DNA from: Fimicolochytrium jonesii
Taxonomy: Eukaryota
Assembly: GCF_025526975.1 (NCBI RefSeq)
Contig: NW_026515671.1
Span: forward strand, 248,001 to 312,000
DNA length: 64,000 nucleotides
Direction: 5' to 3'
A program made the position numbers and the translations under genes. Positions 24,623-64,000 of the stretch are shown here, in pieces; position 1 is the stretch's first letter, and each line of letters opens with the position of its first letter. The notes beneath the pieces are model-generated. The model was given only the letters and a program-made list of their open reading frames with translations. It was not told the origin of the DNA and did not search any database.

Positions 24623-27600
24623 ATGGACGACCAGGAAGAGCGACAAATGCAAGTGGACGAGCCACGAAATGGTGATGAGAGAGAACCGCCTTCAAGCGAG
24701 GTACTGTTTGTCGTTCTGGCGTAGACGATAGAAATCGATGTTGACGAGCAATTAAATAGGCCGATCATGAGGGAGAGGGCTCCGGTGATGACACGGCGCG
24801 GCCTTCAGCGGGTCGAGTAGGGGTATGTGGTGCAGAGTTGTCGAACCGCTGTGGACATATTGGGAGACTGCCTTCTTACATCACAGTGTATGGGCAGATG
24901 TACAGCGATGACGACGAATCCGAAGAAACCGAGGATGACGAAATGACCGAAGCCGACAAACAATTCATCGTCTCCGACGCCGACGAAGAAGAAGGCGGCG
25001 CGGAAGTCTCCGACGACGCCGAAGGCAACTCCTCCTCCCAAAAACGCCGCAAAAAGCGCAAACGACGAAAGCGCGCGCCCTCCGACTCCGAAAGCGATCT
25101 AGACGAAGACGACCTCGATCTCGTCAACGAGAACAGCGGCGGTGGCGGGCGGCAGTTCAAACGATTGCGACGGAAGGGGGATGACGATGAGCTGGCGAAG
25201 ATATTTGAGGATGAGGAGGAGGCCCCTGTAAGGGCTGTGGATTATGATGATGATGATGGGATGGAGGACTTCATCATTGATGATGAGGAGGGGGAGGTTC
25301 CCGAGGTGGATCGGGCGGAGAAGCTGGCGCAGAGGAAGAAGGAGAGGCAGATTTTAGGGCATAATTTGGGGAGGGGGTTGGGGATTTCTGATGAGTAGGT
25401 TGAGGAATGAGTGCCTGTCGGTTCGTTGACGGCATTGCGAGGATGTACTGACGGATCACCGTTACATAGCATGTGGAGCGAGGTTCAGCTCCTATTCGAT
25501 TACGAGGTGGATTATGGATGGGCGTTGCATGGCAAGGTATAAGACGACATATGCCGCGCGAACACGCCAAGGCCGCGTCTCTGATAGCTCATTCCTTCTC
25601 TTTCCCAGCCTGACCTGATGGACGTGGACGAAGTCGATGACGAAGGCGTAGTCCAAAAAGACAAGACCCTGAAGCTGACTGATGTATATGTGGTGCATTG
25701 CCGCGATGTGGGTCGAACAACAGACTGACACCTCCTACGTGTGGATTTTATGTAGATTTACGAGCCAGCAGAGATTGCAGAGAAGCACTTGACCGACGCA
25801 GATGAGCTCATTCGCGTCAACGATGTTCCTGAACGGTATCAGGTATTCTATCCGGCTGTTATCGACCCTTTCAATCCCACATCATGATCATTGATCGGAA
25901 AATAATTGCAGTCACGCGGCGACCTACCCATCCCCGAAGCCGGCGAGCTCGAACGCGAAGCCCTTTACATTGGTCAACAAATCTTCACCGAAAAGCATAT
26001 CGAAGACGAAGTCACCCTCACCCACCCCGTCGTCGAATCCATCCACAAAGTGCTCGAATTCGTCCGCGGAGAGAACGATCGCCAGGAACGACCGCACTAC
26101 GAAGTGCCTTTTATCATGACCCATCGGAAAGACTACGTAGCTGGCCGGCTTGACCGAAACGATATGTGGCGCGTGGTGGATCTGGATCAGCAGTTTATTG
26201 CGCTGGAGCAGAAGAAGAGGAACCTGTCGGCGTTGTTCAAGGATATCGTGTCCCTTTCGCCGGAAGCGGTCAATGATACGTATGTCGAGCAGTGTCTGAG
26301 CAAGGCGACGACGGTGGAGGCCGTTGCGGATGTGTCGCAGTATATTCAGCTGCGGTACTCGAATGAGATGGCCCAGGCGGAACAGTCAAGGCGGAATACG
26401 TTCAAGAAGGCTAGGCGTAAGACGGCCTATGAGATTGGGAAAGAAGCTGGGTTGTCGAAACTGGTCGAGATGTTCAATTGCGATGGACGGCAGATTCCGA
26501 ATAATATCACGGGTGGAGCGACAAAGACGGATGTGCCGGCGGAGACTCCGTTTCAGGTTGCTGCGCGACTCACGGGTGCTTTGTTCGCTACACCTGAAAA
26601 GGTCCTGGACGCAGCACGCTCGATGGTCGCAGCGGAAGTAGCCGCTGACCCCGCCTTCCGAAGCTTTGTCCGCAAAATTTACCTCTCCGACGCAACCCTT
26701 ACCGTCACTCCAACGCGCAAGGGCAAAAGCGAGATCGACTACAACCACCCCTTCTACTTCTTCAAATACGTCACCAACAAGTTTCTCTGGGACTTCCACG
26801 ACGGCGTGTTCCTGCAGGTCATGAGCGCCGAAGACCAGAAGCTGATCGAGACGGATATCCGCATCTCTGCGGAAGAAGAGTTCCTGAACGATATCATCCG
26901 CCGCGTGTCGTTTGCGTCGGAGACCCCCGTCGCTCAGGCGTGGAACGATGAGATCAGGAAGGCAATGCTGCATGCGTGTAGGGATATTGTGTTTCCGCAG
27001 CTGGTGAAGTGGCAGAAGGAGAAATGGGCGATGCAGAGCGCGGATTTTGTGGCGTTGGAGTTCCAGAAGGCTTTGGAGGCTAGGATTGAGATGGCGCCGT
27101 ACACGCGGGACCCGGATACGGTCGAGGAATGGGACCCGCGGGTGTTGGCGATTAGTTGGGGGGATGGGGAACCCAATGCGCCGACGTGGGCGGTTGTGTT
27201 GAAAGAAACAGGGGAACTGCTCTCCACAACCAAACTCGAACGTCTGCGAGGCCCACAGGAGCAGCGTCAACCGGACATCGACACTATCTACGACCTCATC
27301 GCACGTCACCAACCCGAAGTCATCGTACTGGGCGGGTTCACACCCAACACCAAAACCCTACTCCACCGCACCCTCGAAGACGCCCTAATCGCCGGCCGGC
27401 TCAAAGACGAGATCAAGATCATCTTCACCGAAGACGAAGCCGCCCGGATCTTCATGAACTCGGAACGCGGCCTCCGTGAATTCCCAGAGGGCGCGTACCC
27501 GCCCCTCGTGCGGTATTTGGTGTCGCTGGGACGGAAGGTGCAGGATCCGACGACGGAGTATGCGGGGTTGATGATGGCGCACGATTTCAGGGATGTGTTG

Positions 27601-29734
27601 GCGTTGCAGTTGCATCCGTTGCAGCGATTTGTGCCGGATGTGAAATTGAAGTGGGCGGCGCAGAAGGCGTTTGTGAATGTTGTTAATAGTTGGTGAGTTT
27701 CTTTCTGTGGGGTTCTTTTGAAGCTGGACTTTTGGGGATCAAATTGTGACTGATTTGGCGTCATTCGGTCGACAGTGGCGTGGATATCAACCTTGCCGCA
27801 CAACATGCACATAGAGCCACGACGTTGCAATTCGTTGCGGGATTGGGACCGAGGAAAGCTCAGTCCTTCCTTTCCAAAATATCGCGATTGGTAAGCGTGC
27901 TGGCGCTAAACTTGATGAATAAACTGTTCTTCAATCGGAGATCCATTTCTACCTCCATTTCTAGGGAGGTCGCTTAGAAACCCGCGCCCAACTCATCCGC
28001 AAATCCCTCTGCGGCAAACGCGTCTTCATGAACTGCGCCTCCTTCATTCGCATCCGCGCCCGCAACTTTGCCCGCTACGAAGCTAACCTCGACGTCCTAG
28101 ACGACACGCGCATCCACCCCGAAGATTACGACCTCGCGCGCAAGATGGCCGCCGATGCCCTCGACTACGAGGACGCCGCAGTGGAAGATGAAGAAAACCC
28201 GTCCGTGCACGTCGCGGAACTGATGGAATCCGACGCGGATCTTGTCAAACTGGCCCATCTCGCCCTCGACGAGTTTGCGCTTGAGCTGGAACGCCGTATG
28301 AAGGAGAAGAAGAAGATGGCGCTGGAGGACATCATGAAGGAAATCATGCGACCGTTTGGCGAACGCCGTAAACCCTTCACACCCGCGTCCCTCGACGAGA
28401 TCTTCACCATGCTCACCCACGAGACAAACGAAACCCTTCGCGAAGGCTCCGTCGTCTCGGCCCAAATCACCCGCGTGGTTGAACGACTGCTCAAACTCCG
28501 GCTCGTCTCCGGTCTGGACGGGCTCATCCACATTCGGCAAATACCCTTCGACAGACATACCAACCCGCCGACATCGCTTGTCGGGCTGTTCAGAGAGGAC
28601 ACGCTGCTGCAGGCCCGAGTTGTGCGTGTGGATAAGGAGCGGATGGTGGTGGAGATGTCGTTGATAAATGTGGATCCGGATGCGAGTAGGGCGAGGGTGC
28701 CGGTGGATGTTAAGTTTGATAAGCTGAGGGAGGAGGATGAGGAGAGGGCCCAGAAGAACAGTGAGTATTTGAATACCATTTGCTACAGTTCTCGCATCTG
28801 GATATTCTTTTGGCTGAGCCTCACGGCGAATCTTTCCCTCCAGTTGACACAAGAAGAAGCAAACGCACCGTCCGCACCATCAAACATCCGTACTTCAAAC
28901 AAATGGACTACAAGCGCGCCACGCAGTACCTCGCCGACAAACCCGTCGGGGCTGTCGTCATCCGGCCGTCGCTGAAGGGCAATGACCACTTTTCCATCAC
29001 CTGGAAGGTTGATGAGGATGTTTTCCAGCATGTTGGTGAGTGTTGAAGAACCGCGGGCATGATTTGTTTTCGTGGATGGCCGATATTCGATATCCGATTC
29101 TTACGCACTTATTCCATTCAAAAGACGTACTGGAAGAAAAGAAGTCGAGCGAGATGGACCTGGGCCGGGTACTGAAAGTCGAAGGCGAGGAGTACGCCGA
29201 GATCGACCAGATCATCGCGGAGCATATCGAGGCGACGAGTCGCAAAGTGCAGAGCTTGCTTGCGCATGCCAAGTTTCATAAGAAAACGATGCCTGAGATG
29301 AGTACGTGTTCACAGATTACTCTCCTATACATCCTCGTGCCCCGTAGCTGATATATATATCCTCCATCCCCACAGTAAAAGAAATCGAACACCAAACCCT
29401 CACAACCTCCCGCTCCGCCTACGGCCTCCTCGCCCACCCCGACCAACCCTGCCATTTCCTCCTCGTCTACAAACACCCCCATACGCGCCGACCGCCCGCA
29501 AAAGACGAGGTCGTCGTCCGGCCCAAGGGGTACATGTTCCGCAAACGCATGTTTTCGAGTGTCGATGAGCTGTTGAGATACTTTAAGGAGGATGAGGGGA
29601 GACGGGGGGCCGCGCACCATCATCAGCAGCAGCAGCAGGGAGGGCATCATCATGCGAGGGCGCCGCAGGGGATGGGGATGCACCTGGGGATAGGTGTGCA
29701 GCCACCAATACCAGGACATTATGTTCGGAGGTAG
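24623..29734 (+). CDS. SPT6: Transcription elongation factor / histone chaperone Spt6, multi-exon
   Basis: Acidic N-terminus; HYEVPFIMTHRKDY; SLGRKVQDP; GVDINLA..LQFVAGLGPRKAQ; LDDTRIHPEDYDLARKMAADAL; S1 domain; tandem SH2 (IKHPYF..VIRPS..ITWKV). Confidence 0.95.
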
Positions 29735-33360: not shown

Positions 33361-34092
33361 TGTAACGTCAGAGGAAACTTAGACAATAATGGGCCCTTCC
33401 GAGAGTGTCGGGGATATCTCATCTTCACTTGTCTCTCATATTATATCTCTTTACTTCTACTCGATCCAAGACCCGGGCTGGCCACCTGAGCTCTCGGTGA
33501 TACATCACATAAGGCGCCAAGCCTCACAGAAGCCACGCAAGCCCCACTGGCAGCCCATATATAAAGCTGTCAGTCAAGCGGCCGCTGCGAAGAGCTTCTT
33601 ACTTTTTTCTTCACTACAATACACTGCTCTCAGCCCTCTCGGAAGAACTCAATATGGTCTATGTTTCCTCTGACGTTACATGGTAGCACCACCTACCGCT
33701 AGCATCACCAAGACATTCCTCGTCAACGTCGCCACCTCTACCGGACGTCGCCCTTACACTCGTTCACAAGCAAGAATGGACGCACAGACTCGAGCTCGCA
33801 TTGCGGCTGTCGCAGCTGCTTTCGCTAGTCAGCAACGTGCTCTTATGCAAGACACCCAACGAGCCGAACGTTTCAAACTTCTTATGGACGCTCGCAAGAA
33901 CAAGCTCATCGAATACGATGGCGCCAAAGCTGCCAAAAAGATCGAAGAGTTCGTTACGTCTCATCACAACTTTCTCGACTCTCTCACTGTCCCGGCTGTA
34001 CCAGCTGGAACAGACGGTACTGGAGCTGCCAACGCCATAGCCTTTACTATGGCAGAGTACGCCTCTACGCTCACTACCTATCTCAAGGGTAC
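33361..34092 (+). mobile_element. 5' end of a tRNA-primed LTR retrotransposon: LTR 33361-33680, PBS 33681-33693, gag-like ORF interrupted at 34093
   Basis: Perfect 18-bp terminal inverted repeat TGTAACGTCAGAGGAAAC/GTTTCCTCTGACGTTACA; internal TATATAAA; TGGTAGCACC PBS directly after; gag-like YDG..IEEF..YLKG. Confidence 0.8.
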
Positions 34093-36499
34093 TGTTATGG
34101 ACGACGGGCCCATACCATAAGCTTACCTACTGACAGCCGCCAATGTCAACCGCCAAATGTCAAACGCCAATGTCAATGTCAATGTCAGTGTCAATGTCAG
34201 TGTCAATGTCAATGTCAATGCCACTCCCCCTCTCTCCTCTCATTTTCGCCAATCCTCCCGCAATATCGCCACTCCTCCTCTCTCCTCTCATTTTGCCAAT
34301 CCCCCCTTGGCTTCTCCACACCCCCCACTACTTCCCCATAGCCAGCAGCTGTGGCAATGCTCTCTACGCTCGCCACGCACGCTCTAGGAGCATAGCTGGC
34401 GCCCCCCCAGTCCCCTCTTGTTGTTGTTGTTCTCTGATCTGCTGGGTTGCCAATCTATAAATAGCCGGCCTCTCTTCGTCCATTCCCTTCCTCCCCAGCA
34501 GATTAACACCAGTTCTTCTCATCTCCTGTTCTAGTCCTTGTTTCTTGTTTCGCCAATACAATCTCTTGTCGCCTATCACTCTCGCCCTGACTTCTCTACT
34601 TCGCTTCCGCCTCCCTTGTCGAGATCATAACAGTTTGATCTGCTCCAACACTGCGAAGTTCAGAACCCGTCCAGCCCTGCATCCGACAAACCTTTTTCGC
34701 CATGTCCCAACCCGAATCCGTACCTTTCACTGCCAAGCAATGGAACGATATGTGCCAAGCCATCGCCGCCTTGCAAAGCCAAAACGCCAACTTGCAGGCC
34801 AACCTAGCGCAAGCCCAAGCCGACGCACAAGCTGCCCAGAGCATCGCCGCCCAGGTTCAAGCCGATACGTACACCCGGTCCCAAGTCACCAACCCTGCTC
34901 TGGAGCCAAGAATCAGCTCACCCAAGAAGTTTCATGGTACCCGCAGCAAATTCCGTGGGTGGTTGAACAACATCCGGTTGATGTTTGCTCTCCAGCCCGA
35001 CCGCTACCCCAGCGACATCATCCAGATCCAAACTATTGGCACCTACCTCACAGGCACTGCGCAAGCCTGGATGGCGCCCCTAGTCGAACGCCAAGATCAC
35101 AGCCTTCATGACTTCGATAGTTTTATCAGTCAGATGCAATCGGTCTTCGGAGACAGCGACAGGGTCCGCACCTCTGAAAACAAGCTCCAGAACCTTCGCC
35201 AAACCCGTGCAGCAACCGAGTACGTCGCTGAGTTCCGCCAGCTACAATGCGATGTCTCCTGGAACGACCAGGCCCTGATTGCTACCTTCCGCCGTGGCCT
35301 CAAAGAAGACGTCAAAGACCTGATGCTCACAATGCCCCCTGCGGCCACCATTGATGTGGTGATGGAGCAGGCTATCCAGTGCGATAACCGGCTGTTTGAG
35401 CGCCGCCTGGAGCGAAACAGAAGCCGCCAGACCTTCCCGGTTCCCCATACCTCGTTTACTACTACCACCACTGTCGACCACAGCGAGCCTATGCAGATTG
35501 ACGCCGCTCGTCCCCGCGGCCCTCTGAGCCCTCAGGAACGCCAACGCCGCATTTCCAACAACCTCTGCCTTTACTGCGGTGGCGCGGGGCACATTGCAAA
35601 AGTCTGCCCCGTCAAGAACAAGACCACCACCCGTGCCGCCAACGTCGACATCAAAGAACCCTCCACCAAACAGGGTTTTCCCAAAGTCCAGCCGCAGTAA
35701 AGCCCCAGCGACTGGACAACACACACCGCCCCGGGCCTCCTAACCTCGCAGCTCCTGCAACGGGAGAGGCCACCCCCCTGGTTCCCGACTCCGTTATAGC
35801 CGACACAACCCTCCTAGCCGCTGCCCATGTCAAAAACTCCGAAATTAACCCCCGCGCCATGCTTGCGCTGGGTCCCGTCGAACCCTTCAACTACCCCGTT
35901 ACCATCATGGTATCATCCAGCCGCGCCCCGATACCTACCTCAGCCATGATCGACAATGGTGCCCTGTCCTGCTTCATTGACAGAGACTTTGCCCGAAAAC
36001 ACCGCATCGCCCTAGTCCCGCATCAGCGTCCACTGACGATCGAACTCGTTGACGGTCAACCCAGCTCTGCTGGGCCAATCACCCATCACACCCGACCAGT
36101 AGGCATGTGGGTTGACGACCACTTCGAAGAACTCGTCTTCCATGTCACCAAATCACCCCATGCTCCAATCCTCCTTGGTCTCCCCTGGCTCCGCCTCCAC
36201 GACATTAACCTTGACTTCAAGAACCTTTCGGTCGGTTTCCGTCGCGACTGTCTGTACCATGAATTCGCGAATTGGGACAACTCTCCAGCACCCCCGAGCC
36301 CAGCACCCGCCAGAACCCCCGAGCCCTTGATCCGCATCCCCCAGGATGAAGTCCCCGTCGACGAAACATGGTCGATTCCAGTACCCAAGGTATCTCGCTC
36401 CAGCACCCTAGAACCGGCTCCCACGCCGCTCCGAGTCTCGTTCATCTCCGCCCCAGCCTTCCAGGTCGCAGCAAGGCATGACCAGGTCTTTGTCGCCTA
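34093..36499 (+). mobile_element. Ty3/gypsy chromovirus copy 1: 5' LTR 34093-34632, gag, protease; truncated by copy 2
   Basis: LTR TGTTATG...CATAACA; near-identical to the reverse complement of about 40090-42447. Confidence 0.93.
34702..35700 (+). CDS. gag: Gag (PEG10/RTL1-like capsid plus CCHC knuckle) of chromovirus copy 1
   Basis: PKKFHGTRSKFRGWL, YLTGTAQAW, LRQ..EYVAEF, FRRGL, EPMQID, CLYCGGAGHIAKVC. Confidence 0.92.
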   Translation: MSQPESVPFTAKQWNDMCQAIAALQSQNANLQANLAQAQADAQAAQSIAAQVQADTYTRSQVTNPALEPRISSPKKFHGTRSKFRGWLNNIRLMFALQPDRYPSDIIQIQTIGTYLTGTAQAWMAPLVERQDHSLHDFDSFISQMQSVFGDSDRVRTSENKLQNLRQTRAATEYVAEFRQLQCDVSWNDQALIATFRRGLKEDVKDLMLTMPPAATIDVVMEQAIQCDNRLFERRLERNRSRQTFPVPHTSFTTTTTVDHSEPMQIDAARPRGPLSPQERQRRISNNLCLYCGGAGHIAKVCPVKNKTTTRAANVDIKEPSTKQGFPKVQPQ

Positions 36500-36991
36500 T
36501 GTTATGATCTCGACGACAGAGGCGGAAGCAAAGTAGAGAAGTCAGGGCGAGAGTGATAGGCGACAAGAGATTGTATTGGCGAAACAAGAAACAAGGACTA
36601 GAACAGGAGATGAGAAGAACTGATGTTGATCTGCTGGGGAGGAAGGGAATGGACGAAGAGAGGCCGGCTATTTATGGATAGGCAACCCAGCAGATCAGAG
36701 AACAACAACAACAAGAGGGGACTGGGGGGGCGCCAGCTATGCTCCTAGAGCGTGCGTGGCGAGCGTAGAGAGCATTGCTCCAGCTGCTGGCTATGGGGAA
36801 GTAGTGGGGGGTGTGGAGAAGCCGAGGGGGGATTGGCAAAATGAGAGGAGAGAGGGGGAGTGGCATTGACATTGACATTGACACTGACATTGACACTGAC
36901 ATTGACATTGACATTGGCGTTTGACATTTGGCGGTTGACATTGGCGGCTGTCAGTAGGTAAGCTTATGGTATGGGCGCGTCGTCCATAACA

Positions 36992-39900
36992 TCACCCCTC
37001 TCTTGAGCGGCGGCGGCGGCGGCGTCGAGTTTGGTGTGGCCGCACAGGAGGTGCTACGGGGACAGAGGAAGGCTTGTTGGGGTACGCGCTGTGGAAGTCC
37101 TGGAGGAGTGCGTCGGTATGGGTGAGGTGTTCCACGGGCTCCCAGGTGTTCTCAGAGTCAGGCCAGCCCTGCCATTTGACCAAGTACTGAAGGCGACGAC
37201 GATGGATGCGAGAGTCAAGGATGGCTTTGACAACCCACTCTTCTTGACCCTCAACGGTCTCTGGGGGCGCGGGTTCGGGTTCGTGTCGTTTGGGGATGGT
37301 GAAGCGGGGTTCGAGGAGCGAGACATGGAAGACATCGTGGATTTTGTACGTAGGCGGGAGCTTGAGCCGGTAGGCGACGGGATTGATTTTTTCAACGATG
37401 GGGAATGGCCCAATCTTGCGATGGTCGAGTTTCTGAGAGGGCTGGGTTGTCTGGAGGTCTTTGCGGAGGAGCCAGACGTGGTCGCCAGGCTTGAAGTGCG
37501 GTCCAGGAATTCGTTTGGCGTCGGCGTAGCGCTTCATTTGATCTTGGGCTTCCTTGAGCTCGAGGGCGAGCTGTTCATGGACTTCCCTGATTTGTTTAGC
37601 GCGGGCTTCAGCGGCAGGGTTGACGGATTCGGAGGTAGCAGAGGCCGCGAAACTGAAGCGGGGGTGGAGACCCTTGTTGGCGTAGAAGGGGGTGGTCTGG
37701 GAGGCGGACTGATGGGTGTTGTTGTAGGCGAACTCGGCGGACGACAGAAGCTGTTTCCAGTTGTCCTGTTGGTGGTTGCAAAAGCATCGGAGATACTGCT
37801 CCAGGATCTGGTTAGTGCGTTCCGTCTGGCCATCGCTCTGGGGGTGGAAGGCCGAGGAGAGGTTGGCTTTCGCCCCAAGGAGTTCGAGAAGTCGACGCCA
37901 GAACCGGGACTTAAACTGGGGTCCTCGGTCAGAGATGAAAACGTTGGGGAGGCCGTGGAGACGGATGATGTTGTGGAAGACTAGGTCGGCGGTGGATTTG
38001 GCGGATTCTGACTTGCTGCAGGCGAGAAAGTGGGCCATCTTGGTGAGGCAACAGTTGACGTTCAGGATGGAGTCGTACCCGTCCACGGGAGGCAGACCGG
38101 TGATAAAGTCCAGGGACCAAGATCCCCAAGGGCGGGTAGGGATACTGTTGGGCTGGAGTAGGCCGTATGGTTTGTGTCGACTGGATTTCGCTTGGCTACA
38201 GGTATCGCAGGACTTGACGTAGGCCTTGACGAAGCGCCACTGGCTGGGCCACCAGTAGTTGCGGGAGGCGAGTTCAAGCGTCTTGGACATCCCAAAGTGG
38301 CCGGCTAGGGGAGTATCGTGCATGTCGTGGCAGACTTCAGCTCGGAGCTCGTTGGTGGGGACAAAGACCAGGTTATTGTGCAGCAGGATCCCATCTTCAT
38401 CTGAGAACCGCTTGATACGATCTTGGGTTTCCTCAGTTCGTTGGGCGAGGGGTATCTTGAGCTTTTCGCGAATGGTCTTAGCGAGGGGAACATAGGCCTG
38501 GGCGGCCTTAATCTTGTCAAGCAGCGTGGTATCCATGGGTGTGAGGTAGGCAGCCGCGAGTTGAAGGCATTCGGGAGTCAAAATTGTGGTTGCCTGGGAG
38601 CGGAACGCTTCTTCCCCCTCGTTTAGCTCATGTTCGGAGCGTCGGGAGAGGGCATCGGCTTGGTGCTGCTGGGGACCGGGGCGATAGGTAATGACAAAGT
38701 CAAAATCCGAGAAGAATATCGACCAGCGGGCTTGGCGGCGGTTCAGGGTGCGGGTTGTCATGAAGTACTGAAGGTTTTTGTGGTCAGAGTAAACGGTGAT
38801 CTTGTGACGGGCGCCAATGAGATGGTGGCGCCACTGGGCAAAGGAGTCTTGGATGGCCAGAAGTTCCTTGTCGTAGATCTCGTAGTTGATCTCTTCGGCC
38901 GTGAATTTGCGAGAGTGGAAGGCCACGGGGTGGAGCTGATTGTCCTGGTCAGGTTGGAGGAGAACTGCGCCAAGAGCGAAGTCGGAGGCGTCAGTTTCGA
39001 CGACGAAGGGCTTCTCTGGGTCAGGGTGAGCAAGGATGGGGGCGGTGGTGAATGCTTTCTTCAGGTTCTCGAAGGCGGTGTTTGCGACGGGTGTCCAGGC
39101 GTACGGGATGTCTTTCCGGGTCAGGGCTGTGAGCGGAGTAGCGATCTTGGAATAACCTTGGATGAATCGGCGATAGAAGTTGGCAAAGCTGAGGAACCGC
39201 TGGACGCCTTTGACAGTCTTGGGAGGTTCCCAATCCGTGATGGCAGCGATCTTCTTGGGGTCCATCTGGATGCCTTTCTCGGAGATGATGAAGCCTAGGA
39301 ACTCAACGGATTCGCGGTTGAATTCGCACTTCTCTGGTTTGGCGTACAACCCATGCTGTCGGAGGCGGGACAAGACTTCGCGGACATGTTTGGGGTGATC
39401 TTCGGGGTTCTTGGAGAATATCAGGACATCGTCGAGGTAGACGACAACAAACACATCGAGAATGTCGCGGAAGATGTCGTTCATCAGGTACTGGAAGACG
39501 CCAGGAGCATTGCTGAGTCCAGAGGGCATGACATTGTATTTGAATAGGCCGTAGCGGCAGCGGAAGGCGGTCTTCCATTCATCGCCCGGGCGCATGCGTA
39601 AGAGGTTATAAGCGCCGCGGAGGTCAATCTTGGTGAGACGGCGGGCGCCACGCAAACAATCCATGATACCGTTGATCAGGGGCAGGGGGTAGCGATTCTT
39701 CACCGTGATGCTGTTCAGGCCTCGATAATCGACGCAGAGGCGGAGAGAACTGTCCTTTTTCTTCACGAATAAGACTGGCGCACCGGCAGGGGACTTTGAG
39801 GGTTTGATGAATCCTTTGGCGAGGTTTTCTTCGAGGTATTCGCAGAGTGCCTTCATTTCTGGTTCGCTGAGGCTGTAGATTGGGCCGAAAGGTGGCTGCT

Positions 39901-40915
39901 TGCCTTCTTCCAGATCGATTGGACAGTCGTAGGGCCGGTGCTCGGGGAGAGTGTCAGCATTTCTCTTTTCGAAAACGTCGGCGAAGTCTCGATACTCGGG
40001 GGGCAGGAAGTCTTTGATGTCTTTCTCGGGTGTCGGGGGGTTACTGGGGCTAGGCGAGGCCGGGAGATCGGGTTTCGCAGGGTTGGCGTAGGCGACGAAG
40101 ACCTGGTCATGCCTTGCTGCGACCTGGAAGGCTGGGGCGGAGATGAACGAGACTCGGAGCGGCGTGGGAGCCGGTTCTGGGGTGCTGGAGCGAGATACCT
40201 TGGGTACTGGAATCGACCATGTTTCGTCGACGGGGACTTCATCCTGGGGGATGCGGATCAAGGGCTCGGGGGTTCTGGCGGGTGCTGGGCTCGGGGGTGC
40301 TGGAGAGTTGTCCCAATTCGCGAATTCATGGTACAGACAGTCGCAACGGAAACCGGCCGAAAGGTTCTTGAAGTCAAGGTTAATGTCGTGGAGGCAGAGC
40401 CAGGGGAGACGAAGGAGGATTGGAGCATGGGGTGATTTGGTGACATGGAAGACGAGTTCTTCGAAGTGGTCGTGGACCCACATGCCTACTGGTCGGGTGT
40501 GATGGGTGATTGGCCCAGCAGAGCTGGGTTGACCGTCAACGAGTTCGATCGTCAGTGGACGCTGATGCGGGACTAGGGCGATGCGGTGTTTGCGGGCAAA
40601 GTCTCTGTCAATGAAGCAGGACAGGGCACCATTGTCGATCATGGCTGAGGTAGGTATCGGGGCGCGGCTGGATGATACCATGATGGTAACGGGGTAGTTG
40701 AAGGGTTCGACGGGACCCAGCGCAAGCATGGCGCAGGGGTGAATTTCGGAGTTTTCGACATGGGCAGCGGCTAGGAGGGTTGTGTCGGCTATAACGGAGT
40801 TGGGAACCAGGGGGGTGGCCTCTCCCATTGCAGGAGCTGCGAGGTTAGGAGGCCCGGGGCGGTGTGTGTTGTCCAGTCGCTGGGGCTTTACTGCGGCTGG
40901 ACTTTGGGAAAACCC
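36992..40915 (-). CDS. pol: Pol (protease, RT, RNase H, integrase, chromodomain) of copy 2, reached by a -1 frameshift from gag
   Basis: [83 protein letters not shown]. Confidence 0.93.
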   Translation of the reverse strand, partial: GFSQSPAAVKPQRLDNTHRPGPPNLAAPAMGEATPLVPNSVIADTTLLAAAHVENSEIHPCAMLALGPVEPFNYPVTIMVSSSRAPIPTSAMIDNGALSCFIDRDFARKHRIALVPHQRPLTIELVDGQPSSAGPITHHTRPVGMWVHDHFEELVFHVTKSPHAPILLRLPWLCLHDINLDFKNLSAGFRCDCLYHEFANWDNSPAPPSPAPARTPEPLIRIPQDEVPVDETWSIPVPKVSRSSTPEPAPTPLRVSFISAPAFQVAARHDQVFVAYANPAKPDLPASPSPSNPPTPEKDIKDFLPPEYRDFADVFEKRNADTLPEHRPYDCPIDLEEGKQPPFGPIYSLSEPEMKALCEYLEENLAKGFIKPSKSPAGAPVLFVKKKDSSLRLCVDYRGLNSITVKNRYPLPLINGIMDCLRGARRLTKIDLRGAYNLLRMRPGDEWKTAFRCRYGLFKYNVMPSGLSNAPGVFQYLMNDIFRDILDVFVVVYLDDVLIFSKNPEDHPKHVREVLSRLRQHGLYAKPEKCEFNRESVEFLGFIISEKGIQMDPKKIAAITDWEPPKTVKGVQRFLSFANFYRRFIQGYSKIATPLTALTRKDIPYAWTPVANTAFENLKKAFTTAPILAHPDPEKPFVVETDASDFALGAVLLQPDQDNQLHPVAFHSRKFTAEEINYEIYDKELLAIQDSFAQWRHHLIGARHKITVYSDHKNLQYFMTTRTLNRRQARWSIFFSDFDFVITYRPGPQQHQADALSRRSEHELNEGEEAFRSQATTILTPECLQLAAAYLTPMDTTLLDKIKAAQAYVPLAKTIREKLKIPLAQRTEETQDRIKRFSDEDGILLHNNLVFVPTNELRAEVCHDMHDTPLAGHFGMSKTLELASRNYWWPSQWRFVKAYVKSCDTCSQAKSSRHKPYGLLQPNSIPTRPWGSWSLDFITGLPPVDGYDSILNVNCCLTKMAHFLACSKSESAKSTADLVFHNIIRLHGLPNVFISDRGPQFKSRFWRRLLELLGAKANLSSAFHPQSDGQTERTNQILEQYLRCFCNHQQDNWKQLLSSAEFAYNNTHQSASQTTPFYANKGLHPRFSFAASATSESVNPAAEARAKQIREVHEQLALELKEAQDQMKRYADAKRIPGPHFKPGDHVWLLRKDLQTTQPSQKLDHRKIGPFPIVEKINPVAYRLKLPPTYKIHDVFHVSLLEPRFTIPKRHEPEPAPPETVEGQEEWVVKAILDSRIHRRRLQYLVKWQGWPDSENTWEPVEHLTHTDALLQDFHSAYPNKPSSVPVAPPVRPHQTRRRRRRRSREG

Positions 40916-41886
40916 TGTTTGGTGGAGGGTTCTTTGATGTCGACGTTGGCGGCACGGGTGGTGGTCTTGTTCTTGACGGGGCAGACTTTTGCAATGTGCC
41001 CCGCGCCACCGCAGTAAAGGCAGAGGTTGTTGGAAATGCGGCGTTGGCGTTCCTGAGGGCTCAGAGGGCCGCGGGGACGAGCGGCGTCAATCTGCATAGG
41101 CTCGCTGTGGTCGACAGTGGTGGTAGTAGTAAACGAGGTATGGGGAACCGGGAAGGTCTGGCGGCTTCTGTTTCGCTCCAGGCGGCGCTCAAACAGCCGG
41201 TTATCGCACTGGATAGCCTGCTCCATCACCACATCAATGGTGGCCGCAGGGGGCATCGTGAGCATCAGGTCTTTGACGTCTTCTTTGAGGCTACGGCGGA
41301 AGGTAGGCATCAGGGCCTGGTCGTTCCAGGAGACATCGCATTGTAGCTGGCGGAACTCAGCAACATACTCGGTTGCTGCACGGGTTTGGCGAAGGTTCTG
41401 GAGCTTGTTTTCAGAGGTGCGGACCGTGTCGCTCTCTCCAAAGACCGATTGCATCTGACTGATAAAACTATCGAAGTCCTGAAGGCTGTGATCTTGGCGT
41501 TCGACTAGGGGCGCCATCCAGGCTTGCACAGTGCCTGTGAGGTAGGTGCCAATAGTTTGGATCTTGATGATGTCGCTGGGGTAGCGGTCGGGCTGGAGAG
41601 CAAACATCAACCGGATGTTGTTCAACCACCCACGGAATTTGCTGCGGGTACCATCAAACTTCTTGGGCGAGCTGATTCTTGGCTCCAGAGCAGGGTTGGT
41701 GACTTGGGGACGGGTGTACGTATCGGCTTGAACCTGGGCGGCGATGCTCTGGGCAGCTTGTGCGTCGGCTTGGGCTTGCGCTAGGTTGGCCTGCAAGTTG
41801 GCGTTTTGGCTTTGCAAGGCGGCGATGGCTTGGCACATATCGTTCCATTGCTTGGGAGTGAAAGGTACGGATTCGGGTTGTGACAT
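40888..41886 (-). CDS. gag: Gag of chromovirus copy 2
   Basis: 332 aa, nearly identical to 34702-35700. Confidence 0.92.
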   Translation of the reverse strand: MSQPESVPFTPKQWNDMCQAIAALQSQNANLQANLAQAQADAQAAQSIAAQVQADTYTRPQVTNPALEPRISSPKKFDGTRSKFRGWLNNIRLMFALQPDRYPSDIIKIQTIGTYLTGTVQAWMAPLVERQDHSLQDFDSFISQMQSVFGESDTVRTSENKLQNLRQTRAATEYVAEFRQLQCDVSWNDQALMPTFRRSLKEDVKDLMLTMPPAATIDVVMEQAIQCDNRLFERRLERNRSRQTFPVPHTSFTTTTTVDHSEPMQIDAARPRGPLSPQERQRRISNNLCLYCGGAGHIAKVCPVKNKTTTRAANVDIKEPSTKQGFPKVQPQ

Positions 41887-42447
41887 GGCGAAAAAGGTTT
41901 GTCGGATGCAGGGCTGGACGGGTTCTGAACTTTGCAGTGTTGGAGCAGATCAAACTGTTATGATCTCGACAAGGGAGGCGGGAGCGAAGTAGAGAAGTCA
42001 GGGCGAGAGTGATAGGCGACAAGAGATTGTATTGGCGAAACAAGAAACAAGGACTAGAACAGGAGATGAGAAGAACTGGTGTTGATCTGCTGGGGAGGAA
42101 GGGAATGGACGAAGAGAGGCCAGCTATTTATAGATAGGCAACCCAGCAGATCAGAGAACAACAACAACAAGAGGGGACTGGGGGGGCGCCAGCTATGCTC
42201 CTAGAGCGTGCGTGGCGAGCGTAGAGAGCATTGCTACAGCTGCTGGCTATGGGGAAGTAGTGGGGGATGTGAAGAAGCCGAGGGGGGATTGGCGAAATGA
42301 GAGGAGAGAGGGGGAGTGGCATTGACATTGACATTGACACTGACATTGACACTGACATTGACATTGACATTGGCGTTTGACATTTGGCGCTTGACATTGG
42401 CGCCTGTCAGTAGGTAAGCTTATGGTATGGGCGCGTCGTCCATAACA

Positions 42448-42769: not shown

Positions 42770-45066
42770 TCAACGTCCAACGACTCCTTGTCCCCTTTGT
42801 AACAATTTGGTGACGGACTCGTCTCCTGCTCCCCCCCCCTTAGAGTTTGTCGTGGGGAAGTAGATGTTCAAGCCAACGCAACGCCAGCGCTCGTCGGGGA
42901 CCGGAATGCAGCGTAGGAGCCCGAAGTTGGAAGCCTGCTTGTTGCGTTGGCAGCCGGGACAAGTCCGGACGTACTGGTGGACCTCGCGCTCGAGGCGGGG
43001 CCAGTAGTATAGCGTGAGGAGTTTGGCGACGGTGCGCTGGACACCCAAGTGGCCGCTGTTGGCCAGGGAGTCATGATAGAACCTGAGGAGGGGGCCCAAA
43101 GGCCCTCGGGGACGTAGCGGCGGCCATGGTACAAAAGGAAGCCGCGGTCGTCGCGCGTGAGGCGGCGGGCAAAACCCGAGAGGGTAGAGGGGTCATCGGG
43201 GTTCGTCGCGGTGGTCTGCAGGTGGGCGAGGGTGTCCTTGCAGAACTTGTCATCGTCGAGCGCAGTGAGCCACTTGGCGTCGGTAGGGAGGCGGCCGTTG
43301 ATGTCCGGTAGAGGTGTCCCGGTGACAATGGAGAACACTTCGACCTTGATCTGACAGCTGGCGCACTTCGGGGCGTACAGCGGTGTGCGGCTGAGTATGT
43401 CGGCGATGTGATTAAACTTGCCGGGGAGGTATTCGATAGTGAAGTCGTAGTCCTGAAGGAACTCCACCCATCCGGCCTGGCGCCGGGAGAGATGAGGCTG
43501 GTTTTGGAGGTATATGAGGGATTTGTGGTCGACGAATGCACGCAATTGGTGACCGATGAGGTAATGGCGGTGAGCGCGGATCACTTTGACCAATGCGAGG
43601 AGCTCCTGTTCGTGCACAGGGTATCGGGTTTCGGCCGGAGCCATTTTGCGTGAGTAATATGAGATGAAGCGGAGGCGCAAAAGGTTACTGAGGCCCTTTT
43701 TTGTGGTGGGCAGTGGGTTCAGCATGGGAAAGTCGCCGTCCATGCCCTGACCGATCCGGCCCCCTACGGCGAAGCCTAACGCGTTGGAGAAGACGTAGGG
43801 GAACTTATCGGGGTCAAAGAACGCCAGGCAAGGGGCTTCGGCGACTCGCGCCTTGATGGTGTCGAAGGCTGCTTGTTCCTTGGCGCCCCGCTGCCACGGG
43901 CGGGTGCCGGATTGAAGGTTGGTCAGTGGGAGGGCTGTTTCAGCATAATGCGGAATGTATTCCTTGACATAGTTGACTAGCCCCATGAAGGAGAGGAAGT
44001 CAAGGGCGCTGGTGGGTTTGGGTCAAGCGTGGACAGCCTCGACCTTGGACGGGACGATGGAAAGGCCGTCTCTACCGACCATGTGCCCGCAGAACTCAAC
44101 CTGGTCCACTGCCCACTGACATTTGGACGGTTTCACGTGAAGGCGGTGAGCCGAGAGGGTCTTGAGCACTTCGGTGACATGCCCGATGTGTGAGTCCATG
44201 TCAGGGCTGAAAATAAGGATGTCATCGAGGTAAGAGATGAGGTATGAATCGTACTTGTCACCCAGGAGTTTGTTCGTGAGGCGTTGGAACGTCGCGGGCG
44301 CGTTTGTTAGCCCGAAGGATAATACGATGTACTGGAAGTGGCCGAAGCGCGTCCAGAAGGCAGTCTCCTCACTGTCTTCCTCCCGAATGAGGATGCAGTG
44401 GTAGGCATTGCGGATGTCCATAGCGGTGAAGACCTTCACGCCGACGAGGCGGTCCTGAAGCTCATTGAGGTTCGGGAGGGGCGTGGCGTCCTTATGGGTC
44501 ATCTTGTTGAGGGCCCGGTAGTCGATGCAGCAGCGGAGGCCACCGTCCTTCTTCGGGGCAAACAGTACGGGTGCCCCCCAGGGGCTCTTAGAGTGGGAGA
44601 TCCACCCGCGGGATGATAGGCGCTTGAGTTGCTGCCGTAGCTCGTCGAGTTTGTCGTTGGCCAAGTGGCGGAGTGGGAGCATGATAGGCTTGAAACCGGG
44701 CTTCAGATTGATGCTGAAGTTGTCATCACCGCGGTCCAGCGGGAGGCCGGTCTGTTTGGTGAAGAGGGTATCTGTAAACTGTTCCAACGTGGGGTGAAGA
44801 GGGTGGTCGGCAGCGACCGACGCGAGTGGATCCCGCGGGGTGGTGTCCGGAGGGGTGGCCGTGCCTTTCGGTCTGCTAGGATCGCACGTTTCTTCCCCTC
44901 GACCGTGCGAACGAAGTTAGCCTCGGCTTCGGCGACGTCCGCGAGGGCGACGTCTGTGGCCAGGTCCACCTCCGTGTCCGTGCGTGAGACCCATGCGGTA
45001 TAGACCTCGGCGGTCTTATCCCTCTTGATCGTCGGTTGAATTGTTTGGCCATGAGGAAACCCTCCT
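42770..45066 (-). mobile_element. Degenerate Ty3/gypsy pol (RT, RNase H, integrase N-terminus)
   Basis: KKDGGLRCCIDYRALN, FGLTNAPATFQ, YLDD, YPVHEQELLA, HLGVQRT..YYWP..CPGCQ; stops, frameshifts and loss of the integrase core. Confidence 0.88.
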
Positions 45067-45117
45067 CATTTAAGGCCACAAGCTTGGGGTAGAAACGGCG
45101 GGGGCGAGGGCCCGTAT

Positions 45118-47006
45118 TGTTGTGTTATTACTGGGAAGTAGCCGATGAAGAGTAGAACCATTACTGGTCTTAATGTATTACTTGTTGTATGTCTATATAC
45201 TCCGGACTCTGGCGTCGGGGTCTTTGTTTCTCTGACCGTGACCAGACTGCTTACGCGATGACAGCAACTGACAGGATAGTTCGCGTCTCTGCACAACACT
45301 CCCCCGACTCGAGCTGTCCAAAAGTCAGCCTGTCCAACTCCCGCTCTCAACTCCATTCCAATCAACAACACACTCTCTCTTTCCGACACCCAAATCCAAC
45401 CAATCCATCAAGATGCCGAACGGTGGTCCAACTTGCCCGATCTGTATGGTCAACCCTGCCATCTACAACGGGCCATGTGGGCACCTCTTTTGCCGTACGT
45501 GCATCGTCCAGGAGATCCTCTCTCATTTGCACGCCCCACGCTGTGGCGTTTGTTGGTGAGTGGTGAGAGGAGGTAATTCAACTGATAAACGTGTATTGAT
45601 TGCCTCTCTTAGAGCCCCGTGGCCAGTTTACTTAACCCGGGACCGGCACAATCGTCAGTGCTGCATGTGCGGCACTAATCCCATCTCGTGTCGCATGGTG
45701 ACCTCGTGTGGCAACTGCACCATATGCAACGGATGCTCCATTTATCTTGTTCGGTGTCACCCGCCGAATCAAGTTCGGTGTCCGTCGTGTCATGTAGCTT
45801 TTGACGCTCCGCTGCTCACTTGGCTCCGAAGAGCCATTATTCAACAATACGGCGTGTAGTGTAGACTTCACTGTCGTAGCCCACATAGTTCCCGTAAATA
45901 AACAAACACCGGTCTCAGAAGCGCTTTCGTTTGGATGTCCGCTATCATTTCTTTTGTTGAGATATACTGGAAATCTAGCTTGCGTTCAGCTACAAGTTCC
46001 CGAATAAAGTGGTGTCGAACGTCAACGTGCTTCGTCCGCTGATGATCCACGGGATTGTTCGCAAGTTTGATGGCGGCTTGGTTATCTTTGTAAATCAGTA
46101 TGGGCTTGTCGGATGCGCCCAGGATTTCCTGTTTCATCCGAGAAAGCCACAGCGCTTCTTTGGCTGCTTCTCCGAGCGCTACATATTCCGCTTCCGCCGT
46201 AGATACTGTAACAGCCGCTTGCCGTTGTGACTTCCAGGATATTGCTCCCCCGTTTAAGGTGAACATGTACCCTGAAACCGAACGCCCAGTCTCTTTGCAT
46301 TTTGCGAACTCCGCATCACTGTATCCCCGGAGTTTGTTATCTGACTCGTTATTGTATTGTAGGATAAGCTCTTCCGTTTTGGCAACGTAACTGAAAACCC
46401 GCTTAGCCGCCTTCATATGTGTCTGTGACGGCTTAGCCAGAAACTGGGATAACTTAGATATCGCGAAAGCGATATCAGGGCGAGTTCCAATCATAAGGTA
46501 CATCAATGACCCTATCATCGATTGATACGTTGCAACGTCTGCCGGTTTCTCATCCGCAGCTATAATCTCAAGCTTCACATTGGGATCCAGCGGCGTGTCG
46601 TGCGGTTGCATCTGCTCCAACCCGAACTTCCGTAGTATATCACTGATGTAATTCTGTTGTCCAATAGTGAGGGTTCGTTGGATGCGATTTTGTCTGACTT
46701 CTATTCCGAGGAGGTAAGAGAGCTCCCCCATGTCTTCCATTTCGAAGCGTAATTTCAACCCTTCTTTAATTGCTTCCCGTTCCACTTTGCTCGTTGAAAG
46801 AATTGTCAAATCATCAACGTAGACGGCGATGATGATAAAACCTCAGCCAATGCGCTTTATGTAAAGAGCATTGTCTAGTTTGGAAACGTTGAAGCCTTTC
46901 TCTCGTAGGTAAGCGTCCAACACCTTATTCCACAACCGAGGTGACTGTTTCAGTCCGTACAGAGAACGTTTGAGTTTAACCGTTGTCCCCTCTGGTAGGC
47001 GAAGGT
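45118..47006 (-). mobile_element. Ty1/copia remnant A: 3' LTR 45118-45298, PPT, cargo region, RT/RNase H 45868-47006
   Basis: LTR TGTTGTG..CACAACA followed by CTCCCCC (PPT on minus); SLYGLKQSPR, YVDD, GTRPDI, YSDA, STAEAEY, RTKHVDVRHHF. Confidence 0.9.
45413..45859 (+). pseudogene. Two-exon tandem RING-finger gene (exons 45413-45555, 45613-45859) antisense within copia A; splice-junction codon now reads TGA
   Basis: Exon 1 CPIC..PCGHLFCRTC..RCGVC is C3HC4; exon 2 CCMC..SCGNCTICNGC..RCPSC is RING-like; 57-nt GTGAGT..CTGAT..TTAG intron. Confidence 0.78.
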
Positions 47007-53545: not shown

Positions 53546-53929
53546 ATCAGGTTGTATTAGCTAGATTGGGTTTTATTGAGCTGGTGGAAGCCTGTAGCAA
53601 CTTCCGCGGGCTCCGCGGACTTGGCAGACGTCCATGGGGGCATTAGCAGGCTACACAGACTTGGCAAAACCTTACCAACCTTAACTGCGGCACTCAGAGA
53701 CGCCTTGGGCGTTCTGAAGGGGTCGCAGAGGGTGCTTTGGACGCCCCAGCACATAGCTAAATCCCCAAGAAAGAAGCCCCAGATTTGTGTAAAAGGCAGA
53801 CCTGTTGCCCGTCCCCTCTCTTCACGTTATCCTCTTCAATACACCACTTTCTATCGCACTACTCTAGCCACACTACCGTCTTCTACATCACAACACTGCC
53901 CTTTGGGCAGCTTCGTCCCTCAGTCATCG

Positions 53930-60507: not shown

Positions 60508-63500
60508 TGTTATGATCTCGACGACGGAGGCGGAAGCGAAGTAGAGAAGCCAGGGTGAGAGTGATAGGCGACAAGAGATTGTATTGGCGAAACAAGAAAC
60601 AAGGACTAGAACAGGAGATGAGAAGAACTGGTGTTGATCTGCTGGGGAGGAAGGGAATGGACGAAGAGAGGCCGGCTATTTATAGATAGGCAACCCAGCA
60701 GATCAGAGAACAACAACCACAAGAGGGGACTGGGGGGGCGCCAGCTATGCTCCTAGAGCGTGCGTGGCGAGCGTAGAGAGCATTGCTCCAGCTGCTGGCT
60801 ATGGGGAAGTAGTGGGGGGTGTGGAGAAGCCGAGGGGGGATTGGCGAAATGAGAGGAGAGAGGGGGAGTGGCATTGACATTGACATTGACACTGACATTG
60901 ACACTGACATTGACATTGACATTGGCGTTTGACATTTGGCGGTTGACATTGGCGGCTGTCAGTAGGTAAGCTTATGGTATGGGCGCGTCGTCCATAACAT
61001 CACCCCTCTCTTGAGCGGCGGCGGCGGCGGCGTCGAGTTTGATGTGGCCGCACAGGAGGTGCTACGGGGACAGAGGAAGGCTTGTTGGGGTACGCGCTGT
61101 GGTAGTCCTGGAGGAGTGCGTCGGTATGGGTGAGGTGTTCCACGGGCTCCCAGGTGTTCTCAGAGTCAGGCCAGCCCTGCCATTTGACCAAGTACTGAAG
61201 GCGACGACGATGGATGCGAGAGTCAAGGATGGCTTTGACAACCCACTCTTCTTGACCCTCAACGGTCTCTGGGGGCGCGGGTTCGGGTTCGTGTCGTTCG
61301 GGGATGGTGAAGCGGGGTTCGAGGAGCGAGACATGGAAGACATCGTGGATTTTGTACGTAGGCGGGAGCTTGAGCCGGTAGGCGACGGGATTGATTTTTT
61401 CAACGATGGGGAATGGCCCAATCTTGCGATGGTCGAGTTTCTGAGAGGGCTGGGTTGTCTGGAGGTCTTTGCGGAGGAGCCAGACGTGGTCGCCAGGCTT
61501 GAAGTGCGGTCCAGGAATTCGTTTGGCGTCGGCGTAGCGCTTCATTTGATCTTGGGCTTCCTTGAGCTCGAGGGCGAGCTGTTCATGGACTTCCCTGATT
61601 TGTTTAGCGCGGGCTTCAGCGGCAGGGTTGACGGATTCGGAGGTAGCAGAGGCCGCGAAACTGAAGCGGGGGTGGAGACCCTTGTTGGCGTAGAAGGGGG
61701 TGGTCTGGGAGGCGGACTGATGGGTGTTGTTGTAGGCGAACTCGGCGGACGACAGAAGCTGTTTCCAGTTGTCCTGTTGGTGGTTGCAAAAGCATCGGAG
61801 ATACTGCTCCAGGATCTGGTTAGTGCGTTCCGTCTGGCCATCGCTCTGGGGGTGGAAGGCCGAGGAGAGGTTGGCTTTCGCCCCAAGGAGTTCGAGAAGT
61901 CGACGCCAGAACCGGGACTTAAACTGGGGTCCTCGGTCAGAGATGAAAACGTTGGGGAGGCCGTGGAGACGGATGATGTTGTGGAAGACTAGGTCGGCGG
62001 TGGATTTGGCGGATTCTGACTTGCTGCAGGCGAGAAAGTGGGCCATCTTGGTGAGGCAACAGTTGACGTTCAGGATGGAGTCGTACCCGTCCACGGGAGG
62101 CAGACCGGTGATAAAGTCCAGGGACCAAGATCCCCAAGGGCGGGTAGGGATACTGTTGGGCTGGAGTAGGCCGTATGGTTTGTGTCGACTGGATTTCGCT
62201 TGGCTACAGGTATCGCAGGACTTGACGTAGGCCTTGACGAAGCGCCACTGGCTGGGCCACCAGTAGTTGCGGGAGGCGAGTTCAAGCGTCTTGGACATCC
62301 CAAAGTGGCCGGCTAGGGGAGTATCGTGCATGTCGTGGCAGACTTCGGCTCGGAGCTCGTTGGTGGGGACATAGACCAGGTTATCGTGCAGCAGGATCCC
62401 ATCTTCATCTGAGAACCGCTTGATACGATCTCGGGTTTCCTCAGTTCGTTGGGCGAGGGGTATCTTGAGCTTTTCGCGAATGGTCTTAGCGAGGGGATCA
62501 GAGGCCTGGGCGGCCTTAATCTTGTCAAGCAGCGTGGTATCCATGGGTGTGAGGTAGGCAGCCGCGAGTCGAAGGCGTTCGGGAGTCAAAATTGTGGTTG
62601 CCTGGGAGCGGAACGCTTCTTCCCCCTCTTTTAGCTCATGTTCGGAGCGTCGGGAGAGGGCATCGGCTTGGTGCTGCTGGGAACCGGGGCGATAGGTAAT
62701 GACAAAGTCAAAATCCGAGAAGAATATCGACCAGCGGGCTTGGCGGCGGTTCAGGGTGCGGGTGGTCATGAAGTACAGAAGGTTTTTGTGGTCGGAGTAA
62801 ACGGTGATCTTGTGACGGGCGCCAATGAGATGGTGGCGCCACTGGGCAAAGGAGTCTTGGATGGCCAGAAGTTCCTTATCGTAGATCTCGTAGTTGATCT
62901 CTTCGGCCGTGAATTTGCGAGAGTGGAAGGCCACGGGGTGGAGCTGATTGTCCTGGTCAGGTTGGAGGAGAACTGCGCCAAGAGCGAAGTCGGAGGCGTC
63001 AGTTTCGACGACGAAGGGCTTCTCTGGGTCAGGGTGAGCAAGGATGGGGGCGTTGGTGAATGCTTTCTTCAGGTTCTCGAAGGCGGTGTTTGCGGCGGGT
63101 GTCCAGGCGTACGGGATGTCTTTCCGGGTCAGGGCTGTGAGCGGGGTAGCGATCTTGGAATAACCTTGGATGAATCGGCGATAGAAGTTGGCAAAGCCGA
63201 GGAAGCGCTGGACGCCTTTGACATTCTTGGGAGGTTCCCAATCCGTGATGGCAGCGATCTTCTTGGGGTCCATCTGGATGCCTCTCTTGGAGATGATGAA
63301 GCCTAGGACCTCAACGGATTCGCGGTTGAATTCGCACTTCTCTGGTTTGGTGTACAACCCATGCTGTCGGAGGCGGGACAAGACTTCGCGGACATGTTTG
63401 GGGTGATCTTCGGGGTTCTTGGAGAATATCAGGATATCGTCGAGGTAGACGACAACAAACACATCGAGAATGTCGCGGAAGATGTCGTTCATCAGGTACT

Positions 63501-64000
63501 GGAAGACGCCAGGAGCATTGCTGAGTCCACGGGGCATGACATTGTATTTGAATAGGCCGTAGCGGCAGCGGAAGGCGGTCTTCCATTCATCGCCCGGGCG
63601 CATGCGTAAGAGGTTATAAGCGCCGCGGAGGTCGATCTTGGTGAGACGACGGCGCCACGCAAACAATCCATGATACCGTTGATCAGGGGCAGGGGGTAGC
63701 GATTCTTCACCGTGATGCTGTTCAGGCCTCGATAATCGACGCAGAGGCGGAGAGAACTGTCCTTTTTCTTCACGAATAAGACTGGCGCACCGGCAGGGGA
63801 CTTTGAGGGTTTGATGAATCCTTTGGCGAGGTTTTCTTCGAGGTATTCGCAGAGTGCCTTCATTTCTGGTTCGCTGAGGCTGTAGATTGGGCCGAAAGGT
63901 GGCTGCTTGCCTTCTTCCAGATCGATTGGACAGTCGTAGGGCCGGTGCTCGGGGAGAGTGTCAGCATTTCTCTTTTCGAAAACGTCGGCGAAGTCTCGAT
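60508..64000 (-). mobile_element. Ty3/gypsy chromovirus copy 3: 3' LTR 60508-60999 and pol with a 1-bp frameshift near 63650; runs off the window
   Basis: Near-identical to 36500-39990; pol is split into ORFs 61000-63666 and 63492-63863. Confidence 0.95.

Follow-up and report, generated by a model that had tools for sequence, protein, structure and literature searches.

How does a retrotransposon start reverse transcription when its 5' long terminal repeat (LTR) is not followed by a tRNA binding site? The question is raised by a full-length Ty3/gypsy chromovirus of the chytrid Fimicolochytrium jonesii, found within the window, i.e., the 64,000-nucleotide stretch of DNA analyzed here. Our results make it very likely that this Tcn1-like chromovirus uses the 5' end of its own RNA as the primer for reverse transcription. 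The self-priming mechanism is already known from Tf1 and has already been proposed or predicted for the Tcn1 clade, and the basic mechanism will not surprise a specialist.

The element and its genomic surroundings

The chromovirus (copy 2, 36500-42447, minus strand) shares the window with two further copies. The main features are:

41956..42447, minus strand: 5' LTR of copy 2, 492 nt with TG...CA ends, from self-BLAST and end sequences
40888..41886, minus strand: gag, 332 aa, Retrotrans_gag/Ty3_capsid, with a C-terminal CCHC-type motif
40909-40915: slippery site GGGTTTT at the end of gag
36992..41086, minus strand: pol open reading frame, open over 1364 codons, -1 relative to gag
36992..37004, minus strand: polypurine tract AAGAGAGGGG plus TGA, adjoining the 3' LTR
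36500..36991, minus strand: 3' LTR of copy 2, differing from the 5' LTR at 14 of 492 positions
34093..36499, plus strand: copy 1, with 5' LTR (34093-34632, 540 nt), primer (34497-34506), PBS (34635-34644), gag and an incomplete pol
60508..64000, minus strand: copy 3, with pol running past the window edge and a 3' LTR (60508-60999)
25906..27696, plus strand: exon of the host Spt6 gene

The LTR boundaries were set by four LTR copies, each of the form TGTTATG...CATAACA. The pol of copy 2 encodes protease, reverse transcriptase (RT), RNase H, integrase and a chromodomain, with Pfam matches to RVT_1, RT_RNaseH, Integrase_H2C2, rve, SH3_Tf2-1 and Chromo, and the protease motif was found by a regular expression. 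The features by which a chromovirus is recognized are all present: Gag, the PR-RT-RH-IN order with a C-terminal chromodomain, TG...CA LTRs and a polypurine tract. The RNase H catalytic motifs and the YLDD residues are present, and three positions deviate from conserved protease and RT motifs. GGGTTTT at the end of gag is compatible with a putative -1 frameshift into pol. A PDB search returned only Ty3 and retroviral enzymes. Additionally, 6-nt TGTCAA/TGTCAG units form a tandem array in U3 (42320-42400, and in the LTR copies), and the U3 of copy 1 carries an additional 48-nt duplication.

The host had been guessed to be an early-diverging fungus, and the guess was right: over 596 aa, the Spt6 exon matches a protein of F. 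jonesii, a chytrid of the Spizellomycetales, with 100% identity, and the runner-up matches are other chytrids at 53-57%. Among named single-domain RT relatives, the best is from Powellomyces hirtus (78%).

Even though its frames are open, copy 2 is probably no longer active and part of a rearranged cluster, since no target-site duplication was found at 36500-42447, the LTRs differ at 14 of 492 positions, and protease and RT motifs depart from the conserved pattern. The pol of copy 1 ends abruptly at 36499 against the copy 2 3' LTR, and the 5' flank of copy 2 (42447/42448) is a different gypsy element, with RT-RNase H at 42868-44916. The exact joint at 36499/36500, the foreign 5' flank and the missing target-site duplication suggest recombination between insertions. 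Decayed gypsy and copia fragments, with pieces of RT, RNase H and integrase, form a dense nest at 42868-60274, including two copia RT copies that are 79% alike (45881-47006 and 57504-58635). The nest borders on a gene-rich region, whose end lies near 29 kb, and is possibly a centromere-like or heterochromatic island. No LTR pairs are present in the remaining gypsy and copia fragments of the window. A 320-nt segment between 45-nt inverted repeats (33361-33680, repeats 87% alike) is a possible MITE.

The primer binding site and its complement in the LTR

The features around the primer binding site (PBS), given in the order of transcription, are:

42125..42132, minus strand: TATA box TATAAATA, its first T 41 nt upstream of the first A of the primer
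42106, minus strand: initiator-like A within a CA, 26 nt from the TATA box, a putative alternative start
42082..42091, minus strand: predicted self-primer AGCAGATCAA, the predicted 5' end of R, starting at LTR position 357
42028..42033, minus strand: candidate polyadenylation signal AATACA, putative in function
41954..41955, minus strand: GT spacer between the terminal CA of the LTR and the PBS
41944..41953, minus strand: PBS TTGATCTGCT, without a TGG start

The sequence directly after the LTR is GTTTGATC, and the PBS starts 2 nt past the LTR. No tRNA-type PBS was found, as there is no TGG within 0-5 nt of the LTR. The PBS has a perfect 10-nt complement in its own LTR. Self-priming elements have been recognized by an LTR complement of at least 10 nt to a region that starts 0-5 nt past the LTR (PMC6317226), and the element described here, with 10 nt at 2 nt past the LTR, falls within this definition. 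In copy 1, the counterpart of the primer is AGCAGATTAA at 34497-34506, with its PBS at 34635-34644, and a C-to-T change gives a G-U wobble rather than a mismatch. Both the lack of a TGG PBS and the perfect complement had been described in the initial annotation, whose four coordinate pairs for copies 1 and 2 proved exact. Its distance of 34 nt between TATAAATA and the complement holds from the end of the box, and becomes 41 nt from the first T (42132).

The transcript would start at 42091 or shortly before, judged from the promoter layout. The primer A lies 30-35 nt from the TATA box in 21 of the 25 relatives with a matching complement (about 32 nt in most), the others being L002 and L030 with 38-40 nt, one locus with 27-29 nt and one without a TATA match. 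The longer distance of 41 nt in the window element and the rival initiator at 42106 speak against the model, although distances of 35-46 nt between TATA box and start are reported in several fungi (PMC9604717). The A at 42106 is the only purine between TATA+23 and TATA+40, and only pyrimidines lie from there to the primer A. The helix is retained (p 0.90-0.93) in every RNA modeled with a start between 42091 and 42140, so that starts within this range would still be compatible with self-priming. At the place of the AATACA, the relatives L063, L064 and L074 have AATAAA.

Folding of R-U5-PBS, proposed earlier as a check, gave a divided answer. The primer-PBS pairing probability is 0.87-0.93 in folds of 148-242 nt and 0.72 in a 292-nt fold, whose minimum free energy structure lacks the helix, and the probability is 0 in copy 1 folds of 170-264 nt. 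The helix is thus predicted at the shorter lengths, and its weakening in the 292-nt fold and its absence from the longer copy 1 folds count against the model.

Ten bases are a short match, and the 5' region is no more stable than its shuffles (z 0.94), both of which speak for a coincidence and the latter also against the model. However, when the 492-nt LTR was shuffled 5000 times with dinucleotides preserved, only 6 shuffles contained a perfect complement to any 10-mer that begins 0-5 nt past the LTR. Relatives were fetched from metagenomes with a 47-row Gag alignment; of 336 relatives the best 80 were taken, which gave 79 loci with a Gag identity of about 40-50%. An open inverted-repeat scan upstream of gag showed a recurring layout, from which the junction RACA-GT-TTG was defined afterwards. 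It is found in 48 of these 79 loci, and many of the remaining 31 have little upstream DNA or are broken there. Among the 34 evaluable loci, i.e., those with the junction and at least 300 nt upstream, a perfect complement of at least 9 nt is present in 25 and of at least 10 nt in 24, compared to 0.12% of 6800 shuffles for at least 9 nt. Five of the nine loci without a perfect match have one mismatch or wobbles, and four have no recognizable R region. As a negative control, none of 107 phage loci that share the same 16-mer by chance has a complement. A search of viral contigs for Gag relatives found none, the 16-mer matches there being due to chance. Together with the covariation described below, which refutes it, these counts leave the chance match a negligible probability.

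The 25 matching loci carry 11 distinct PBS 10-mers, and in a cross-matrix of these types, matches between different types never exceed 8 nt. In an alignment of 18 rows, compensatory change on both sides is seen at 9 of the 12 helix pairs, and the covariation score is 0.558 vs. 0.160 in shuffled alignments (0 of 500), with all slid controls at most 0.083. The rows were picked from the matching loci, and the count of 25 in 34 is therefore a fairer test than this score. RNAalifold, unprompted, returned the same helix together with a bulge and two spacer pairs. Compensatory changes in diverged subfamilies had been named in advance as a check on self-priming, and their presence across distant relatives supports that interpretation.

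The primer might also come in trans, if priming at the PBS were due to a small RNA such as a host tRNA (its 3' end or a half-molecule) and the LTR complement were incidental. One 10-nt primer is shared by four deep Gag lineages (the window element; L002/L030; L063/L064/L074; L079), and a primer in trans would enforce such constancy. About 5% of plant Tcn1 elements use tRNA-Met (PMC6317226). However, half-tRNA priming in plants was found only in copia lineages (PMC6317226), the PBS lacks a TGG start, the window has no tRNA gene and the PBS site no tRNA-like match, and Rfam returned only a sub-threshold lncRNA match at the site. Above all, the 11 PBS sequences each track their own LTR, for which a fixed tRNA cannot account. 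We therefore regard priming in trans as highly improbable. The shared primer is possibly the ancestral Tcn1 primer; the base of the Gag tree is poorly resolved with long branches flagged, and we claim no order of events from it.

A further rival is a structural or packaging hairpin that closes R-U5, with priming by another route. Long-range 5' pairings do play structural roles in other retroelements. However, the 3' arm lies exactly at the PBS and the 5' arm starts at an A which, in most relatives, is at promoter distance. Additionally, the near-absence of wobbles in the helix (see below) suits templated copying better than a plain stem, and we consider this explanation very unlikely.

The junction and the predicted position of the cut

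The self-priming model leaves the question of where the RNA would be cut. The relevant feature follows the primer:

42074..42081, minus strand: conserved CACCAGTT, in which an invariant C is predicted to be bulged and the next two bases are predicted to pair with the GT spacer

We compared the 32 distinct elements in which both anchors are present. All 32 have a C directly after the primer, and the spacer is GT in 30, GC in one and AT in one. In 31 of 32 elements each, the C at +3 pairs with the spacer G, and +2 with the spacer T. Further on, pairing is predicted between the GTT of 42074..42081 and AAC at the LTR end. Positions +6 to +8 are able to pair with the LTR end across the set, and +8 pairs with an LTR purine in all 32 (CG 22, TA 7, TG 3), with four changes on the Gag tree, so the stem covaries at one pair. 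This stem is weak: p is about 0.17 in the window element, the duplex energy of -7.6 barely improves on the -6.5 of cross pairs, and RNAalifold omits it. A leader-LTR duplex 3' of the PBS was better than shuffles (p<0.05) in only 2 of 32 elements (median p 0.68), in a crude test that stems of 3-4 bp could escape.

Two primer lengths can be compared at this junction. In Tf1, the retained primer is copied into PBS DNA (PMC11042837), and such copying should erase wobbles inside the primer. In our set, G-U is found in 3 of 315 helix cells and, at the +2 pair, in 10 of 32 elements; this pair changes seven times on the Gag tree. The rows are related and not independent, so that the Fisher value for this contrast is too strong. 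A primer of 13 nt, extending past the bulged C and through the GT-spacer pairs so that it ends flush with the LTR and no spacer is copied, would agree with the two spacer pairs, both also predicted by RNAalifold, and with Tf1, in which the PBS abuts the LTR at positions 1-5 (PMC11042837). It would also be expected to produce a CA-GTG-TTG junction, or to turn GT into GC where +2 is G. However, the junction with the extra G occurs in none of the 79 loci, and the ten elements with G at +2 retain the G-U pair. Within self-priming, the 13-nt primer is therefore the unlikely variant. That a wobble is tolerated at +2, is nearly absent from the helix, and is accompanied by no extra-G junction points to a +2 base that is probably not copied, a primer ending at nt 10 or 11 and a cut at the bulge. 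The cDNA would then probably carry the GT spacer, which integrase would have to trim. Ty3 and retroviruses likewise have a short spacer between LTR and PBS.

The proposed self-priming would then run as follows. Pol II would start at or just before the A at 42091, as placed by the TATA box, and RNA nt 1-10 would pair with the PBS about 130 nt downstream, a pairing for which the complementarity is present and the covariation argues. The helix is predicted to be extended by the bulged C, the two GT-spacer pairs and the short LTR-end stem. By analogy with Tf1, the RNase H of the element would cut the RNA, and the wobble tolerance places this cut behind nt 10 or 11, at the bulge. Synthesis by RT would proceed through GT into U5-R, leaving, unlike in Tf1, a cDNA end with two extra bases that integrase might trim, and the PBS would be regenerated when the retained primer is copied during plus-strand synthesis. 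Such regeneration would explain the joint change of primer and PBS. Both the RNA cut site and a two-base trimming by integrase are predicted from the conserved junction (CAA, C-R-C, against CA-GT-TTG).

A possible U3 lock and the relation to known self-primers

The primer has a second complement, overlooked in the initial annotation, upstream of the TATA box:

42142..42153, minus strand: U3 site TGATCTGCTGGG, 12 nt that are perfectly complementary to 42083-42094 (CCC and primer nt 1-9)

A 12-bp inverted repeat thereby flanks the TATA box. The U3 site is present in all four LTR copies and arose in 3 of 20000 shuffles, in a test made after the site had been seen. Among 25 relatives it was found in none, with best matches of 4-8 nt, and is thus without covariation support. 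The U3 pairing has an energy of -21.8 vs. -13.6 kcal/mol, and in modeled RNA that includes the site, primer-PBS pairing falls to 0.00. The site may guard the 3' primer copy and block RNA started upstream, or it may be a neutral local inversion. Tentatively, and with the odds against it, we suggest that it could act as a built-in lock that masks the primer in any RNA containing U3, so that only RNA from the element's own promoter can prime. If so, the second primer copy at the RNA 3' end would be silenced and transcripts starting upstream of 42153 disabled, and the lock, the cut at the bulge and the 2-nt spacer would make up a distinct Tcn1 variant of Tf1 priming. In Tf2, start-site control of self-priming works by omitting the primer (PMC5341516).

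Self-priming has been shown for Tf1, with a primer of 11 nt cut between nt 11 and 12, and proposed for Cryptococcus Tcn1 (PMC7175516) and Tj1 (PMC4600332), the latter having been expressed in S. pombe; it has also been predicted for 83% of plant Tcn1 elements (PMC6317226). Hairpin priming in chromoviruses is only mentioned in PMC3601003. Like Tf1 and Tf2 (and Tj1, Tosmo1-3 and Tcry1, which are also experimentally studied self-primers), the window element is a chromovirus with no tRNA PBS and with RNase H intact, and its PBS, as in Tf1, is complementary to the predicted first RNA bases. Unlike in Tf1, the perfect match extends over 10 nt (9-12 in relatives), the PBS is preceded by a GT spacer, a C is predicted to be bulged, and there are two open reading frames instead of one. 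Tf1 requires three duplexes, including a leader duplex (PMC10085805); of this 'pretzel', only the central duplex is firm in the window element. The initial description as Tf1-type is apt for a PBS complementary to its own LTR without tRNA, and less so for the junction, where the Tf1 PBS abuts the LTR. The tRNA-primed chromoviruses (Ty3 and the plant Tekay, Reina, CRM and Galadriel) have the same gene order, but here there is no TGG-type PBS and the PBS covaries with its own LTR.

The window element most likely belongs to the Tcn1 clade, judging by its sequence. Overlapping gag and pol frames and a chromodomain are shared with Cryptococcus Tcn1, the moss PpatensLTRs, Selaginella SM-Tcn1 and BatDenTy3-1, by which the clade was earlier reported from the chytrid Batrachochytrium (PMC2864245). 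The start of RT is identical to SM-Tcn1 at about 75 of 108 residues (about 69%, counted by eye). In the SM-Tcn1 sequence (PMC2864245, supplement 3; regions 392-413 and 491-513, read by eye), the LTR end at 496 is followed by GT and TTG..., the junction layout found here, and a 12-nt complement at 395-406 (15 nt with flanks) is followed by CACCAGT. PMC2864245 states that no evidence of self-priming was found in SM-Tcn1. This element, published as lacking a priming site, thus appears to carry one in its own sequence file. The window element differs from SM-Tcn1 in its primer letters, the longer TATA spacing (41) and the U3 primer complement.

Our literature search found no report on the window element or on self-priming in chytrids, though the element table of PMC6317226 may list such primers. 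The results therefore add a well-supported chytrid case to the Tf1/sushi self-priming group, in which bench work has so far been done mainly in fission yeast, and they provide covariation evidence for self-priming in the Tcn1 clade, which is absent from the papers on the clade that we consulted. Further additions are the 2-nt spacer and bulged C unlike Tf1, the evidence for a cut at the bulge and the U3 hairpin; for Tcn1, spacer and bulge may already be visible in figures of Butler 2001 and of Goodwin and Poulter 2001. No second self-priming family was found in the window by searches for the junction and the post-primer motif.

Some relatives have long leaders. A TGGTATCAGAGC in the leader of L057, which we take to resemble the plant tRNA-Met PBS, was considered as such a site and dropped, as it is absent from L039, L048 and L050. 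These leaders are about 300 nt long and consist of repeated units of about 115 nt (L039:1910-2200, L048:88-340, L050:497-770 and L057:1133-1430, with similar ones in L040, L045 and L052). In L039, L048, L050 and L057 they contain recurring GGATTACCC motifs with inverted arms of 9-10 bp, 87-88 nt apart, and are possibly a structured packaging or translation element.
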